The notes under the pieces: model-generated
The model's input: only the letters and a program-made list of their open reading frames with translations
Database searches by the model: none
Told to the model about the DNA's origin: nothing
In this document: piece by piece, positions 46,001 through 55,000 of the stretch
Numbering within the stretch: position 1 is the first letter of the stretch
Layout of the letters: every line of letters starts with the position of its first letter
Translations under genes and position numbers: made by a program
Assembly: GCA_013239625.1 (NCBI GenBank)
Contig: MU054338.1
Location: 744,001-808,000, forward strand
Origin: Lama guanicoe
Lineage: Eukaryota
DNA length: 64,000 nt
Reading direction: 5' to 3'

Positions 46001-49000
46001 AGCCTCAGCCCAAGTTTTTATTTTCCCAGCTTCCTGTTAGAAAAATAGGGATACAGGGAAATGGGAAGAGCAGTGAACCCCTGAATACACTGCCCAGATG
46101 CGCCAGTTGTCAGCGTCAGTAATCTGTATAGGACCCTGGATGCCAAATCCACAGACGCTCAAGTCCCTCATACGACATCATGTAGCATTTGCATGTGATC
46201 TGCACACGTCCTCCCGTGTACTTTAAACCACCTCTAGGTGACTTATAAGACCTAACACAGTGTAAGTGCTATGCAGGTGGTTAGCTGGCATGTGGCAAAT
46301 CCAAGTTTTGCTTTTTGGAACTTTGTGGAATAGTTTTCTGCGTATTTTTGATCCACAGTTGAAACCAGGGACGCAGAACCTGTCAGGGGGCCAGCGTGCT
46401 TATCCTCATCTTGGTCTGCACACACTGCTGCTGACAGCACACCCTCCTGCCCCATCCCCACACCCCGGGCACCCGCTAGGCTTATTCGCAGGGCGCTCAC
46501 AGCTCTTCTGTTCAGACCTGGCTGGAGCGAGGCTTGTGTCCTGTGGCATTCGCCCTCCAGTTGCTCAGGGGAGGGCAGGGGAGGCCCAGTAACCTGCACA
46601 CCCTGGTGGTCTTGAGCCCCCTGTGCCCCTGTGAACCTGTCCCCGCCCAAGTGTAGCCTCTGAATCCCTAGTGGAGTCCCTTGGGAGTCTTTGGGGGCAG
46701 GAGGAGGCAGGAAAGGGGAACAGTCAGGTAAGTGATCTTCAGGTACCAGAACTTTCCACAGTCCTGAAAGCGAGCCTCGTTGCCAGTTTGAGTTGTGGAG
46801 GCTGCCCTGATTTCCGTGATTCTCCTGAAACCCTGGGTTTACACTGCAGAGCTCTGAAGTCCGCAGCCGTGTGACCGCCCATCCCCGGGCACAGGGCGCG
46901 GCAGGGCTGGTGGGGCCCCATGGCCTGTGCAGGGAGGCAGCACGCTGCCGGCGCTGCTGCTTTGCTTCTCTTTGGACCTGCTGGATTCTTGGCGTGTTCC
47001 AGTCTGACTTTCAGAGGCTACATCGTACGCACTGTGGGGAGTGTTCTGAGGGTTTCCCATGTGAGCTAACCATTTTCTTCTTCTTGAAACAGCAGAAAGG
47101 ACCCAGGAGCGATAACAGTAAATCAAATAAGATATTTGTCGGTGGAATTCCCCACAATTGTGGTGAGACAGAGCTCAGGGAATACTTCAAGAAATTCGGA
47201 GTGGTGAGTCCTTCCCGCGCCAGCAGCATGGCTGGTCAGGGCGGGAGTGGCGTAGCCCTGTGTGCACGGGAAGGTGCGGCCCGGCCGCCTCTCCTCTAGT
47301 CCCGGTCCTCCCCTGACAAGGCGGGCCAGAGCCGTCCTTCCTCTTCATGGCCGTCTGCCAGCCCAGGAGAATAGTTAGTGGCTTTTCTAGGAAAATGTCA
47401 GTTGGACAGACGGACTTCCTGGAAGGCGCTCTGGTTGCTTGTGGCCACCATGGTGGAAACCCCTAGATGGTACTTGGGACTACGGGTGTGTCTGGGCCGA
47501 GGAGCTAGCCTGCTATCCCTCGGCACAGGGGGGAATAACCTATATCAGGTCCACCTGGGGCCTTGGCTGACTGCCTCCCCTTCCCCCAAAGGACCTGAGG
47601 ATGGTTTTCTTTTCTGGAAGAGGATAAAATCCTTTAGAATCTTACAGGGCTCAGTTACTTGGGGTCACACGGGGAACTCAGTTCTTGTGGGGCAGACAAA
47701 ACTAGGCTGCAGCTAGGGAGCCGGCAGGTGTGGGAGGCTGTGCGGTCATCTGAGGCGAAGGCGCGAGGTCACCCAGGCTCCTGCCGGGTCATGCTCTCGC
47801 TGCCGTCAGATGGCACATGTGCAGGCCTCGGGCCTGGCCAGGAATTAGGAGCGTGGGGGCCAGGGGTGCTGTCCCTGGGAGGTCCTGGCCCCCACAGTGT
47901 CCCATGCCCGCCCTGGGAGCACCCATCCAGCCTGCTCACGCCCCACGGACCTCAGACCCCACAGACACAGCCTTTTGCTGCGGGACTTCCTGGGTTCTGG
48001 AGACACTCAAGCAGCCGTGGGCTCGGGAGTTTGGTTGTAGCCAGAGGTGGCTGGGGCGCCTGTGGACCTGGGTCCTCAGACGCCGTCTCTCTTCCAGGTC
48101 ACAGAAGTGGTCATGATCTACGACGCGGAGAAGCAGCGGCCTCGAGGTAAAAGAGACGGAGTTTGTCCTCGACCCCCCCTCAGATGGCAAACTATCTCAC
48201 AATTAGGTGGTGGTTGTAGCGAGCATTGCCTCAGAAAAGGGTGATTTGGAGACCAACCATTAAAGTGTAGGCCCTTCTTACGCGGCCCCCAGCCTGTCTG
48301 CTTCCCAAGGTCAGGCAGTACTGTCTTTTTTTTCCCCCTCCAAGCTCACTCTTTTAAAGTTTTTACACCTTGACATGAATTTCAACATGGTTTCTGTTTT
48401 TAAGTGTGTCCTGAAAGATTAGTTGTTCTTTTAAATCGTGAACGTCCTCCCTTACGCCCATCTCCTGTTTTAAGTTCACACCAGTGAAGTCAGGAGTCTC
48501 ATTTCACGTCGTCAGGCTAGGTCTGCCCCAGCTCAGCTCGAACGTGGACTTTCTTTGATCCATCTCATGCTTTTTTCTTACTTTGGTATTCTTTCTCCCC
48601 TGAGTCCGTGGGGCAGGCGGGAGGAGGGGTGAGGAGCCCCCTCAGCACATCCTGGCCAGAGTCCCCGAGCTGCCCACACTTGCACGTCTAAATGGGTTTG
48701 CGGGGCTGGGGCACCGGCACCCAATCTCCGTGCCCCTTTTTTTTCTTTTTTTTTTTTTTGGTGTGTGTGTGCGCGGCTGCTGCTCCTTGTCCCCGCCTGT
48801 ATGTTTTGGTTCATGAACCGCTTTTGGACCGGCCATGTGAGCTGATCTGCCATCTGGGCTCCAAGCGGCCCCCCGCCCCGTCGAGGCACCCCGAGCGCTG
48901 AGCCGGCGCCGCCCGCAGCATGCGCCCGCCATGCTGGAGAATAGTTTGCCATTTGAACCTCATCTCCTCTTACTCCATGATTAAGTAACATATCCTCACT

Positions 49001-52000
49001 TCATGTTGATTAAGCTGTTTAAGTCTTAGTCTTAATTTTAACGTAGATGTACATGCTTAGTGACGTACTTAAGTGTTTCATAGTAAAGTACAGTAACGTT
49101 AAGTAAGTTGTTTTTCCTTTTCTCTCTGTGAATTGTTTGNNNNNNNNNNNNNNNNNNNNNNNNNNNNNNNNNNNNNNNNNNNNNNNNNNNNNNNNNNNNN
49201 NNNNNNNNNNNNNNNNNNNNNNNNNNNNNNNNNNNNNNNNNNNNNNNNNNNNNNNNNNNNNNNNNNNNNNNNGTTCCGCTTCCTCAGTGGTGATGTCGCC
49301 TCTGACAGACAGACGCATCCCTAGAGGCCCCGCCCCGGGGCTCCTTCCCCACGACTCACCGCCTCTTGTGCTATAAGGACCGCGAGCCCTGTGGCTTCAG
49401 ACACTCCTGCACTTGGAGAAAACGTTCACTTTTTAACATGCCGCTCAGCACCCATGTTGCGTTCCACCACCTGCCTCCGATCTTGTGACACCTCAGGACG
49501 CGGGGACACTGAGGCTGCTCTTAGATCCCTTGGTCGGCCCCCCAAGGCCCTCGCCCCGGGCCGGGGGCAGGCCGAGCTGCCTGGGCGGGTTCAGGCAGGA
49601 AGAGCTGGCAGGGAGAGCGCTTTGGGCTTGACCCTTGGGCGGCATTGAGTGGGGCTCAGACACCCGCTTGCCCCTGAGTCCCCAGCACTGGGCGAGCGAG
49701 GGCGGGGCCAGGCCGAGAGCAGGACTGGTTGGCGGGCGTCCCAGAAGACTCCCTCCTGCCTCCTCACCTTCCGAGTCTTCTCCAGAGCCTCTGCCTCACC
49801 CTCCCCATCCCAGTCTATCTCCCCTCATTCCCGCTCCCACCTCCTTGAGTCTGTTCTGCAGCCAAGACTTGCTCCGTCTCTCATGCCCCGTGCAGGGTCC
49901 TTGTGGTGGGTGTGCAGGAGTCACCCCTCACCCCCACGAGCCTGTCCCCCCTGCCTTCTCCCACCTCCTTCCTTCACCGCGGTTTTGCCAATAATGTTTG
50001 CACATGGCCCCAAGGACTGGCCCGCATCCCTCTTTCCTTGGTCCCAGAGGCCTGGGAATGCTGCTCCTCCTGGTCCCTCCCCAGCTGCCTGCAATCTCTG
50101 CATCTGCCTCCTGGGATGCTCTGTGCCCCGCACCCCTCCCCCATGCCTGTCTCCAGCCCCTCTCAGGCCCTCGGCCCTTCCCCTGGCCTGTCTTTTGTTC
50201 TAGGGGGTCTTCCGGCAGCTGTCTGCCACGAGAGTCCTTTTGTGCTCAGAGCAGTTGGGCCCCGGGGAGCCAGTGCAGCAGACTGAGGACCGGACAGGCC
50301 AAGCTAGCCAGGCGGTCGTGCTCACCCAGACCAGCAAACTTCGTTTATACTGCACTTTCTTGTGTTTGGGAAATGCTAAATTGTTTTTCCCTTGGAAATT
50401 CTCTTTTTGATGACGTTGTGCCTCTTGCTCTTGCTGCCGACAGCAGTGTTTGACCTGCTGGAACCCGTTGTGGCCTGTATCTCTGTGTATTTATGTAGAC
50501 ACGAACAGATAGACACCTGTATGCATATGTACCTTACCTTGGCAGGACTCCTTGGGCTTACCCAACAGCGTTGGGCAAGCTTGGCGAGGCTCTCCCTGTG
50601 GTAGAGACCGTACCTCTGTTAGCGCTAGGCCGTAGACGGCGGCTGTCAGCACGAGCTGCAGAGCAATTGCAAGCCGAGGGGGAGGACCCTGGGTTTCAGA
50701 AAAGCGGAGACGCACCCACAACACACACCCAGTTGGGCAGGGCTCAGCCCAGCCCCTGCCTGCTGGACCCCGCGGGCACCTCGCCCCTCCGTCCGGCGGC
50801 CGCGCGCTCGGACGCACCCCAGCAGATCCGGGGTGGCGCACACGGGCTTCGCTGAAACCCTCGGTCGATCCCTCGGCCGGCCCTGATACTGNNNNNNNNN
50901 NNNNNNNNNNNNNNNNNNNNNNNNNNNNNNNNNNNNNNNNNNNNNNNNNNNNNNNNNNNNNNNNNNNNNNNNNNNNNNNNNNNNNNNNNNNNNNNNNNNN
51001 NNNNNNNNNNNNNNNNNNNNNNNNNNNNNNNNNNNNNNNNNNNNNNNNNNNNNNNNNNNNNNNNNNNNNNNNNNNNNNNNNNNNNNNAACTTAGGGATTT
51101 CACTGGAAATGAAAATCCCTTATCAGGAGGAGGGCCGGGCTAGTCGTCCTGGGACCCTAAGCTGTGGGTTGGGCCCGGTTCTCCCGGAACCGGCTTTCCA
51201 TCTGGAGCCCCACCTGGGGGCGGGCATGGGGTGGGGGCCCCAGGGTGGGGGGGGCTGGCCTCCAGTGAAGTCACAGGTTGCCTCAGGCTTGGTTTCAGTG
51301 ACCACTCCTTCAGACGTGTGTCCCTTCCCCGATTGTCCTGTGGGGGCCGGTAACGGGCCAGCCGCGAACCTTGGGAGAACAGGGTCTGTGTAAAACTGAA
51401 GGCAACGTAAACACCCTGAAGGATTGGTTGTTAATTGGGTCACTTACTGTGGACTCGGTACCAACCACATGCTCCTGGTAGTCCTTAACTCCATGCAGTC
51501 AAGTGACCTCTGGTTGTTTCATCTTCATACTGTGTTGCTCCACAGAGGGAAACTCAGAAGTGGCCCGACCCTCATTTTCCCCAGCCCCAGGGAGCTTTTT
51601 GAGTTTGAACATAGCTCAAAAATGAGTAACTGGTGGGAACTGTGCAGTTTGCCAGGGCTGAAGGTCCCCCTTTCACAGGGTTCCCACCTCGGGCCCCGAG
51701 ACCTGCTCAGCACACCCAGCCCTTCTGACAGGCCCCGGCCGACTGGCCGGCTCCAGTGGGGAGGAATCTGGTTCCAGTGTGTCCTGTGCGTCCGCCCCTG
51801 GAGGGCAGTGAGATGTAGTCTCAGGCTTCACCAGTTCCACTTGAACCAGACTGTGCAGGAGACAGCTGCACTTTTAGTTTTAGGCAGTCATTGAAGCTTT
51901 TAGTTTAAAATTAGCACGTGGATTTCAAGGACGCGTGCAGTTACAAACACAAAGTTCAGAGGAGCCCGCGTCCCATGTTTTAAGGCACTGTGACGTTCAC

Positions 52001-55000
52001 AGCCCAGCTCCTGCAGGGGCAAGAGGCCTGCTAAGCCACCGGTCTGCCCTGGCCCGGTTTTATGGGTCCCAGCAGTGTCTGGGGCTGGGGGCGCACCTCC
52101 AGCGAGGGGTGCACGTGTGGAGGCCGGCTTCCGCCCCCGGGGTGCGAGCTGGAGTGCAAGGAGTGACATCTGCGATCCCGTAGGAAGGGGAGAGGTGGTT
52201 TTGTTTTGTTTTTTTTCCTTAAAGCGGGGCTGCTTTGCTTTGTTAAGCAGGAACCAAATTCCCTTAAGGGAAGTGTGGGAAGACTCGTTAATTTGAGTTC
52301 TTTGAAATGGTCCCCATCCTGCTGTTGCACCACCCTGAGCTGGCGGGGATTTTGTTCCTGTCTGTGGAGCATCCTTGGGTCATTGGAAGGTGGGGTCCCT
52401 GTGCCTCTGTCCCCCGCCTGTCTTCTCTCCCAGGCAGGGGTTTAGGGCAGAACACCTGGTGCTAGGCTCACAAGATGGGGCCCCAAGGACGACTCCAAGT
52501 GGGTCCTTGTCTCTTTCTGCTCATTCACACTTATCCTACCAGCCAGAAACACTTGGGGTCCCGGCAGGCCTGGAACGGGGGTCTCTGCTGTCAGACTGCC
52601 TGCACAGGGAAGGCTTTGGGGGGTGAGCGGCGGCCAGGCCTCCCCGCGCCGGCTCCTGACACCTGACACGTCCGAGAGAGGGAGGGCCCGGGCTGCTGAC
52701 CTAACACAGTATGAAGATTGCTTACTGATTCAAATGTCCATTTTATTGCATGTTTGTTTACTTTTTGTTAGATGTAATGTAAGATCCTCTTACCACATCC
52801 ATTTCCTCTGACATTGTTTTGAGTTAATTGAGATTCTTTAAGCGTTAGCCTGGGGAAGGTAAGTCTTTATCTTCCATTAGACATTTTAAATAAAAACCTA
52901 AGTAAACCAGCTGTGTTTCTCAGGTATGAGCTGAAGGTGCAGCAGGGGTGGGTCTGGAGAGGGCCGGCTTGTCTGGCGGCCTGGGCTGCTCCCAGCCCAG
53001 GTCCCTCCCCGCGGCCGGAGGTGCCTGTGATGGGGCGATCCCAGTCTCTGGGGCCACTTAGCTGGATGGAAGGCCCTGGTCCGCACAGAGGGCTCTGGGG
53101 GTCCTGGTCCCCAGGCCTGCCCCCCGTGGGCAGGGCTTTGCTTGTCTTACAGTTGGATCTGTTGTACCTGAGAAACATTTTTTAAACAAAAAAAATTTTT
53201 TAAATTTTTTTTAAGAAAAAAGTTAATGGCCTAAATAAGGTTTATAGTTAAGTATTTAGTTTTAAGTTGTAATAAGATGCTAAGTTTAGTTGTAAGTTAC
53301 TTGAGGGTGTGTCTGAAGGGATGGGGTCCGAGACCCCCGGCATCTCCCTGAACCAGAGCTCGGTTTGTCTAGGTGGAAGTTAAGCGGGCCGAGCCTCGGG
53401 ACAGCAAAAGCCAAGCGCCAGGACAGCCGGGTGCCAGCCAGTGGGGCAGCCGGGTCGTGCCCAGTGCCGCCAATGGCTGGGCAGGCCAGCCCCCGCCCAC
53501 GTGGCAGCAAGGATACGGCCCACAAGGTAAGGCTCGTACCCGCAGCCAGCCCGGGTAGCTGCGGGGCCGGGGCAGGGCTCCTGGTGCTCGTGCAGGCCAT
53601 GTCGGGGCTCCCCGTCCGGCCCGGAGGTGCACGCTCGTCCCAGGAGCCGGTGCCTGGCCCTTCCTGCAGGCCTGCAGTGGGTACTGGCATTCACTGCCAA
53701 TTCACTGCCCACGGAGGGAGACAGCAAGGCTGTCCTTGGGCACCAGGTCCATCTGGAGAGTCGAGTGACCCTTGGTGGTCATCGTGGCCACAGAGCTGCA
53801 GTGGGTGTCCTCCCTGAGGGCCAGGCTGGTCTGAGTGAGCTCTGGGTCCTTTCCCGGTGCTGGCCTGTGGTTGGGGGCTGCTGAGGCAGTGCCTCCAGGT
53901 AGGGAGTATCAGGGAGACCGTCCCCTGCACTGAGTATTGTGCCCACCCAGAAGAGGGGTTGGGAGTGGCCAGGGCCTCAGATCAGATCCTCAGGGGAAGA
54001 GTGGGCTGCTCCCTGGGCCAGAAGGAAGCTCAGAGTCCTGCTGCCTCTTGGGCCCTTAGGGTCTTTTCCGGCTCTCTGGGCTGTGGGTCCTCCATGTGGC
54101 ATTGGCAGAGCTTTTGAGGACAGCTCTGCAGGAGGGTTGGGGTGACCAGGGGTCCCAGGACAGGAGCCGGAGCCTCCACCCGCTTTAGAACCCCAAGAAG
54201 GGCCAGCATCCAGGGAGGGCACCAAGGAGGCCAGGCAGGCCTGACTGCTCCCAGGGCACTGGCACCCCTGCACCCGCAGAGCCGTCTCTGCCCGGCTTGG
54301 GGCTTTCTCCTGGGTCTTTCCAGAGCTGGCTTTTAAAATACGTGTTTTATTGCAAAAAAAAAAAAAAAAAAAACTGCAGCTGTAGGAAACCATCTAATGA
54401 GACCTGAGGCCCTCACATCCACCAGCAGGTGAAAAACTAGCATTTGACTGTGGAGTCTGGCCCCAGGTTCCCACCTCCCAACCTGAGATCCCACTCGTGC
54501 ATCTGAGTCCCTGATCTGTGGGTGCACCTGGAATGTGTCAGGACCCCAGGTCCTGCGGCAGGGCGGGGGGTCCCCAGTCTGCAGTGTGGTGCCGACTGGG
54601 CACCCACCCCACCTGAACCCTGTGTTTCCTGTGCAGGAATGTGGGTGCCGGCAGGACAGGCGATCGGTGAGTCCTGCCCCAGAAAAGGGGAGAAGGGAAT
54701 CTGAAACGGGCAGCCTGCGTCTAGCAGGTGGGGCTGTGAGCCGAGCTCTGGTCCTCACCCTGCGTCCTGTGTTCCAGGTGGCTACGGTCCGCCTCCTGCG
54801 GGAAGAGGAGCTCCCCCCCCACCCCCGCCGTTCACCTCTTACATCGTGTCCACCCCTCCTGGAGGGTTCCCACCTCCTCAGGGCTTCCCCCAGGGCTACG
54901 GCGCCCCGCCGCAGTTCAGTAAGTGCCCGCGGCCCTTCTGGGGTTCTGAGCCTCCAGCCTGGCACCCTTCAACCTCTCTGGGGGGGCGCGGCGTGGCCGT

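Follow-up and report, generated by a model that had tools for sequence, protein, structure and literature searches.

Introns 6 and 7 of guanaco DAZAP1 as a probable unproductive-splicing module with candidate long-range RNA helices

The stretch considered here, hereafter the window, is 64,000 nucleotides (nt) of the genome of Lama guanicoe (GCA_013239625.1, contig MU054338.1, positions 744,001 to 808,000 of the forward strand), and all positions are counted from its first letter. The interval analysed, approximately 5.2 kb of the plus strand, comprises introns 6 and 7 of DAZAP1. The gene was assigned because the peptides of exon 3 and exon 8 match named DAZAP1 proteins (up to 100% and up to 98%, respectively). 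DAZAP1 activates splicing and has been linked to both proliferation and spermatogenesis, and a splicing RNA-binding protein is what would be expected as the product of a gene that hosts an autoregulatory poison exon. We propose that the two introns probably form a conserved unproductive-splicing module that sets the amount of full-length DAZAP1. A previous reading of the same DNA from its letters only (the sequence-only reading) had centred on two exon-shaped units, here called unit 1 and unit 2. Exons and exon candidates of the interval are listed below; splice sites were scored with a crude matrix of nucleotide frequencies and ranked among the 310 donors and 333 acceptors of the interval.

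48098 to 48146, plus strand: DAZAP1 exon 6, 49 nt, ending in phase 1, defined by translation and splice sites
49047 to 49102, plus strand: unit 1, 56 nt, with a weak acceptor and a GTAAGT donor at 49103
49160 to 49293, plus strand: exon 6b, stop-carrying, with an estimated start, lying mostly in a run of undetermined bases (N run) and ending at the stop of its longest form
50892 to 51087, plus strand: second N run, which probably contains exon 7 and the start of intron 7
52772 to 52858, plus strand: unit 2, 87 nt, a candidate poison or decoy exon with a GTAAGT donor at 52859
52779 to 52784, plus strand: internal donor of unit 2 (AAT/GTAAGA), 7 nt into the unit
53373 to 53526, plus strand: DAZAP1 exon 8, 154 nt, with a weak acceptor (rank 77/333, crude matrix)

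In a 406-residue orthologue, RRM2 spans residues 115-183, with exon 6 ending at residue 154 and exon 7 at residue 182. The 28-residue peptide of exon 7 finds a best six-frame match of only 6/28 in the readable sequence. Since the peptide is missing there and exon 6b accounts for the first N run, exon 7 probably lies in the second. Judged by the residue count (28) and by the phases of the two neighbouring exons, it would be 83 nt long, which makes it a frameshifting exon.

Protein records were used as traces of splicing. A search of sequencing runs listed 24, of which 20 share part of 51100-53600 with the window and five are recorded as RNA (0.40 of the words), which by itself is no evidence of splicing. 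Of protein records, we fetched 493, of which 284 were informative; the sample is biased in that it consists of cluster representatives and the members listed (at most 15 each) of 24 clusters, and includes de novo gene models. The informative records comprise 220 canonical forms, 17 in which exon 7 is skipped, 16 reading into intron 6, five with an extra intron-6 exon, four reading into intron 7, and 22 others.

The skipped records come from mammals and reptiles and are spread across amniotes. When exon 8 of the window is joined directly to exon 6, it reads G-G-S-stop, 494 nt ahead of the last exon junction. Nine of the skipped records end in G-G-S-stop or in matching longer tails, and all nine fit exon 8 one base out of frame, with up to 11/11 codons. 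Eight of these nine come from Logan assemblies; with the upstream exons joined in them, spliced RNA is their most likely source. The remaining eight skipped records are downstream open reading frames that start in the other frame of exon 6 and join exon 8; their sources are platypus, marsupials, pocket mouse, macaque, three lizards, and one Logan contig. In mice lacking Upf2, the junction of Dazap1 exons 6 and 8 is listed as giving a premature termination codon (PTC) upon exclusion of exon 7 (Weischenfeldt et al., 2012; PMC3446288, Table S8). According to the same source, inclusion of the exon, expressed as the fraction spliced in, falls upon Upf2 loss both in macrophages (0.96 to 0.66) and in liver (0.75 to 0.25), with a 2.9-fold higher gene level in Upf2-null liver. 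The PTC distance given there is 493, compared to the 494 computed here. Exon 7 skipping is an already known and published target of nonsense-mediated decay (NMD) in mouse, and it is conserved. In six supplements of that paper, Dazap1 occurs in the common PTC+ gene list and in the exclusion table only; whether an inclusion table is among the six was not checked.

The extra exon of intron 6 is seen in five of the 284 records, in which exon 6 is continued by DFSSPGAKLYHT... (colugo P0105, snow leopard P0128 and P0131, Logan P0138, and human P0334, that is XP_016882071.1 / XP_054176488.1). The snow leopard record P0128 runs on to PLPQW-stop and there aligns colinearly with readable sequence of the window (49276-49293), which places the acceptor of exon 6b near 49160, or 57 nt past the donor of unit 1 if there are no indels. 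The second snow leopard record, P0131, has a short form of exon 6b and then continues at an acceptor at 49288, just past the first N run. In addition, a vole model fits exon 6b one frame over (11/12 codons, 0/2000 shuffles), such that the exon occurs in primate, colugo, cat, and vole. A search with P0138 against 50%-identity representatives returned mostly generic RRM proteins, and the final tally holds no further exon 6b record. In two kiwi records (P0293, P0295), a 43-residue in-frame insert is found between exons 6 and 7.

These records change the view of unit 1. As the sequence-only reading had noted, both units begin TAG/ATGTA, end in GTAAGT (at 49103 and 52859), and have an early in-frame stop. 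Unit 1 is weak on its acceptor side (crude score 0.8, rank 41/333), and directly behind its donor lies a pyrimidine tract, which continues into the N run. We assign this tract to exon 6b, because the 6b acceptor lies 57 nt after the donor. Given that the stop exon of the records begins approximately 57 nt past its donor, unit 1 is probably the upstream flank of exon 6b rather than the exon used, although it could act as a minor upstream acceptor. The TAG/ATGTA start occurs just twice in the 64 kb (among 4487 AGs), at 49047 and 52772. A common origin of the two AU-rich islands in which the units lie (islands 1 and 2, below) was considered and rejected, as these have no further similarity (local alignment, p 0.29), and the shared start therefore does not stem from duplication.

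Unit 2 has the best donor of the interval (1/310), a good acceptor (7/333), and an AG-free zone of 53 nt. In the phase left by exon 7 it reads M-stop, with the stop 586 nt ahead of the last junction, so that the unit combines canonical sites with a stop more than 50 nt before that junction, as poison exons do; for this reason, NMD would be expected to act on a spliced form and to keep it rare. Unit 1 reads D-V-H-A-stop after exon 6. In the sequence-only reading either unit would truncate RRM2; unit 2, however, would cut just at the end of RRM2, past residue 183. Both ends of unit 2 appear conserved across amniotes, as judged from peptides of two lizard gene models. In Phrynosoma (P0268), exon 8 is joined from the 3´ donor of unit 2 with DRLSQSLGK, matching DSLSVSLGK of the window at 7/9 positions (next best 4 among 296 donors). 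In the skink Lerista (P0265), the model uses the internal donor and ends in VRCN, spanning this donor and the unit 2 acceptor; four residues match, the next best being one. A 20-nt pattern of unit 2 had no match in metagenome contigs, and a scan of such contigs for exon 8 gave a single locus (L001, 53% identity) that was not used.

Some forms were considered as evidence for unit 2 and rejected. P0001 (GKK-SGS-stop, 185 residues) resembled a unit 2 product but, by inspection, is better explained if the A-run where exons 7 and 8 meet is one A longer. P0124 (GKK-SV-stop) likewise has an extra A at the end of exon 7, here on a retained intron. A vole segment that follows exon 7 and has M as its first residue could not be placed on unit 2. 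The extra-A forms could represent assembly error or slippage.

Both introns are also found retained. The read-through forms of the tally (16/284 into intron 6 and 4/284 into intron 7) include one intron-6 form present on 26 contigs, and a detained intron of DAZAP1 is reported to rise upon loss of ZFR and to carry a ZFR signal in enhanced crosslinking and immunoprecipitation (eCLIP) (bioRxiv 10.1101/2022.06.15.495552). Read-through peptides (VCSCSFILP, VYSCNFILP, and VCSW; records P0077, P0122, P0115, and P0009) show the first bases of intron 7, a stretch unreadable in the window, to be kept from medaka to mammals and birds. Camel gene-model peptides closely match two stretches of intron 6, at 49861-49905 (14/15) and 50249-50356 (33/36), which we read as prediction artefacts. 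Even ordinary intron thus changes little between close relatives, and conservation of this sort means little by itself.

Three AU-rich islands contrast with the surrounding GC-rich intron, at the positions originally described.

48960 to 49139, plus strand: island 1, GC 0.32, UAAG six times and UAAGU five times, forming the upstream flank of exon 6b
52705 to 52905, plus strand: island 2, GC 0.32, UAAG four times
52889 to 52894, plus strand: AATAAA, 30 nt past the unit 2 donor and the sole copy in readable introns 6-7
53170 to 53300, plus strand: island 3, GC 0.19, UAAG seven times and UAAGU four times

The islands had been described as rich in UAG/UAAG, and for UAAG the description holds. Against counts of 6, 4, and 7 in islands 1, 2, and 3, shuffles predict 0.8, 1.0, and 1.2 (p <0.001, 0.018, and <0.001 with mononucleotide shuffles; 0.001, 0.02, and 0.0015 with dinucleotide shuffles). 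The 5´-splice-site-like UAAGU is likewise enriched in islands 1 and 3 (p <=0.001). Of the seven DAZAP1 hexamers given in PMC4344520, island 1 contains two (GCUUAG and GUAACG, both within unit 1; p 0.08), and the other two islands contain none.

The islands are bordered by the arms of predicted long-range helices. Pair probabilities were taken from folds of 1-2 kb pieces, for which long-range folding is only indicative.

48180 to 48198, plus strand: 5´ arm of helix A, 33 nt past the exon 6 donor, pairing with 48937-48956
48836 to 48856, plus strand: helix B, a rival partner of the helix A 5´ arm (-21.5 kcal/mol)
48937 to 48956, plus strand: 3´ arm of helix A, at the start of island 1
51521 to 51537, plus strand: 5´ arm of helix C, pairing with 52702-52718
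52702 to 52718, plus strand: 3´ arm of helix C, at the start of island 2, covering the last two AGs before the AG-free zone of unit 2
52914 to 52927, plus strand: 5´ arm of helix D, just past island 2, covering a cryptic donor after 52923 (third-best donor of the interval)
53164 to 53177, plus strand: 3´ arm of helix D, at the start of island 3

Among the uninterrupted stems of the 5.2 kb, helices C, A, and D rank as the three longest, and each has an arm at an island edge. Helix C has 17 bp (16/16 Watson-Crick pairs plus one G-U) at -23.1 kcal/mol and a mean pair probability of 0.95. The core of helix A (48180-48195 with 48941-48956) has 16 bp and extends beyond a bulge, with -25.4 kcal/mol and a mean pair probability of 0.96, and helix D has 14 bp, -20.3 kcal/mol, and 0.98. 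Two stems of at least 16 bp were found in none of 150 block shuffles and in none of ten other stretches of the window. Helix B was rejected as an alternative, its pair probability being 0.00 in a fold in which it competes with helix A. The arm at 48180-48201 can also form a small local hairpin and, with 48836-48856 as a second and weaker partner, the arrangement resembles that of docking and selector sequences. Both arms of helix A recur at the peptide level, which is indirect evidence, and no compensatory pair was seen among these peptides. Read-through peptides of the 5´ arm recur in Anolis (P0076) and in P0139, P0166, and P0214. For the 3´ arm, bank vole P0215 has EHSLPFEP in place of ENSLPFEP of the window, and the codons place the change at the one-base bulge. 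Helix D also covers a GU-rich stretch that follows the AATAAA at 52889, a possible intronic poly(A) site.

The proposed module combines exits seen in relatives with further, putative steps. In relatives, skipping of the 83-nt exon 7 brings up a stop early in exon 8 and the message is degraded by NMD, exon 6b is spliced to exon 6 just behind island 1, and both introns can be retained. Unit 2 would add a third exit, either rarely spliced or serving as a decoy. The three helices would shorten the introns. Helix A would loop out approximately 740 nt and bring the exon 6 donor near the exon 6b acceptor, and helix C would loop out approximately 1.16 kb and bury the last competing AGs before the acceptor zone of unit 2. 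Helix D may bury the cryptic donor and set the UAAG-rich island 3 approximately 55 nt plus the helix behind the unit 2 donor. According to the KATMAP analysis (PMC13751310), DAZAP1 acts as an enhancer of inclusion at a distance of tens of nucleotides past a 5´ splice site, and this is where helix D would put island 3. Proteins of the hnRNP A/B type may use the islands as binding platforms, and the helices would plausibly give entry to ZFR, a binder of double-stranded RNA described as binding duplexes of 12-24 bp and favouring introns with conserved complementary pairs (bioRxiv 10.1101/2022.06.15.495552).

Several points weigh against this reading. Unit 1 or unit 2 is spliced in 0/284 informative records, in a sample that is both biased and incomplete. 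The records from lizards and vole are gene models without a name, labelled "hypothetical", and speak to conservation of sequence and donors, not to splicing. The protein records do not distinguish exon 6b as a cassette exon, which would entail NMD, from a last exon. The pattern of helices at island edges was spotted after the fact; one stem of at least 16 bp occurs in 3/150 shuffles and in 3/10 control stretches, and a stem of at least 14 bp in 58/150 shuffles, so that helix D is by length alone within chance. The indirect evidence for conserved arms concerns helix A. The UAG part of the earlier description fell away, as UAG is not above composition in islands 1-3 (4, 3, and 3 against 3.1, 3.6, and 3.2 expected; p 0.38-0.72). 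AUA-N1-3-AUA, the motif reported for DAZAP1 by RNA Bind-n-Seq (bioRxiv 10.1101/201996), has zero occurrences in all three islands. Finally, the DAZAP1 intron that responds to ZFR need not be intron 6 or 7 (bioRxiv 10.1101/2022.06.15.495552).

The sensor of such a module is a matter of competing readings. Autoregulation, with DAZAP1 itself as the sensor, is plausible on mixed motif evidence, and we rate it somewhat short of even. Slightly better placed, and close to an even call, is cross-regulation, in which ZFR/ILF2 would act on the helices and hnRNP A1/A2 on the islands with DAZAP1 not being sensed. The duplex length and intron preference of ZFR and its effect on a DAZAP1 intron (bioRxiv 10.1101/2022.06.15.495552) agree with this, as does the absence of DAZAP1 from the main text and one supplement of an ENCODE-based screen for autoregulation (PMC6547761). 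However, that absence may reflect missing DAZAP1 eCLIP data, and autoregulation is common among hnRNP-type genes (established knowledge; background in PMC3446288). A tentative third reading, less favoured than either of these, is that unit 2 and the UAAGU repeats engage the spliceosome without being spliced, hold introns 6/7 in the nucleus, and favour skipping of exon 7. The sites of unit 2 outscore the exon 8 acceptor and yet the unit is unseen in spliced form, the UAAGU repeats number five in island 1 and four in island 3 (p <=0.001), 20/284 records read into introns 6/7, and a DAZAP1 intron is listed as detained (bioRxiv 10.1101/2022.06.15.495552). On the other hand, the read-through records include gene models and unspliced precursors, and unit 2, if spliced in, would be rare in any case owing to NMD; moreover, a decoy role can coexist with the module proposed above. 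Both rivals, cross-regulation through ZFR or hnRNP A/B and unit 2 as a decoy, are live, and they are not exclusive.

More elaborate or more literal versions fare less well. It is doubtful that DAZAP1 limits itself through a structure-gated switch with all three exits (exon 6b, exon 7 skipping, and unit 2), in which the helices deliver UAAG islands to the stop exons and single-strand binders (DAZAP1, hnRNP A/B) are read against ZFR. The two-switch loop of the sequence-only reading, with units 1 and 2 both as poison cassette exons whose inclusion rises with DAZAP1 on UAG/UAAG clusters, we consider improbable. Both units have AG/GT ends and early stops, the ends of unit 2 appear conserved, and the two DAZAP1 hexamers (p 0.08) lie inside unit 1, but the acceptor of unit 1 is weak, the 284 records contain neither unit in spliced form, and the 57 nt from the unit 1 donor to the used acceptor would be very short for a mammalian intron. 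Furthermore, exonic UAG motifs bound by DAZAP1 are described as silencers (PMC4344520). The broader claim, alternative splicing coupled to NMD around RRM2, survives in that exon 7 skipping is documented and exon 6b is in the records, though mostly by routes other than units 1/2. Least probable of all is intronic polyadenylation, in which unit 2 would be a composite last exon ending past the AATAAA (52889), while cleavage would be suppressed by helix D and by U1 at the strong donor. The hexamer has no second copy in the readable introns, lies 30 nt behind the donor, and precedes the GU-rich stretch under helix D, but one such hexamer is expected by chance in an AU-rich island.

Alternative splicing coupled to NMD in hnRNP-type genes and poison exons controlled by structure are known kinds of regulation, and exon 6b is in RefSeq. 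New here are the three long-range helices at island edges, and the cis-elements that can be named are exon 6b, unit 2, the three helices, and the three islands. The NMD-coupled skipping of Dazap1 sits in a supplementary table of 2012, and no mechanism turned up in our literature searches. These turned up no publication on autoregulation of DAZAP1, on unit 2, or on the helices, any of which may be listed in sources outside the scope of the searches (most subscription papers, the PREPH catalogue, a RIC-seq supplement, supplements of bioRxiv papers, and GENCODE). In supplements, DAZAP1 was found only as a regulator or knockdown target (PMC11632617, 9/9 hits; PMC10123112, 4/4; PMC8052449, 1/1), and in PMC7764535, PMC3552424, and PMC3091714 the occurrences are in references or in passing. 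The helices would offer a concrete structural reason for the reported effect of ZFR on a DAZAP1 intron. If the model is true, the level of DAZAP1 could be tuned with antisense agents that block unit 2 or an arm of one of the helices.

Among known systems, PTBP1 exon 11 and FUS exon 7 are similar in being frameshifting exons of the RRM region with conserved flanks and skipping that leads to NMD. They differ in that autoregulation is established there and a hypothesis for DAZAP1, and in that the skipped exon of DAZAP1 is also flanked by one or two stop exons. SF3B1 intron 4 is said to contain decoy exons in a retained intron; the likeness is in strong cryptic sites within a conserved and often retained intron of a splicing factor, with the decoy role of unit 2 being putative. 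Structure-mediated control of splicing is also known from the RNA bridges of RBFOX. Closest of all is mouse Dazap1, with the identical gene and event and a nearly identical PTC distance; its row in Table S8 of PMC3446288, where Fus exon 6-8 is listed as well, is silent on exon 6b and unit 2, and the relevant passages name no regulator, cis-element, or RNA structure. In human, the RefSeq model of DAZAP1 isoform X11 (XP_016882071.1 / XP_054176488.1; P0334) has exon 6b, and not unit 1, joined to exon 6, which means that exon 6b is already annotated, in a form whose protein alone does not tell a cassette from a last exon. With respect to structure, the nearest parallels are the pairs of complementary regions described for BRD2 exon 3b and BRD3 (PMC10789245), for ATE1 (PMC7797038), and in a catalogue (PMC8052449) that may already list the DAZAP1 pairs. 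Compared to these, the DAZAP1 helices are known from predicted pairing, with conservation that is indirect and confined to helix A. As in those systems, intronic helices of 14-17 bp span 0.2-1.2 kb by regulated exons, and one arm has two possible partners.

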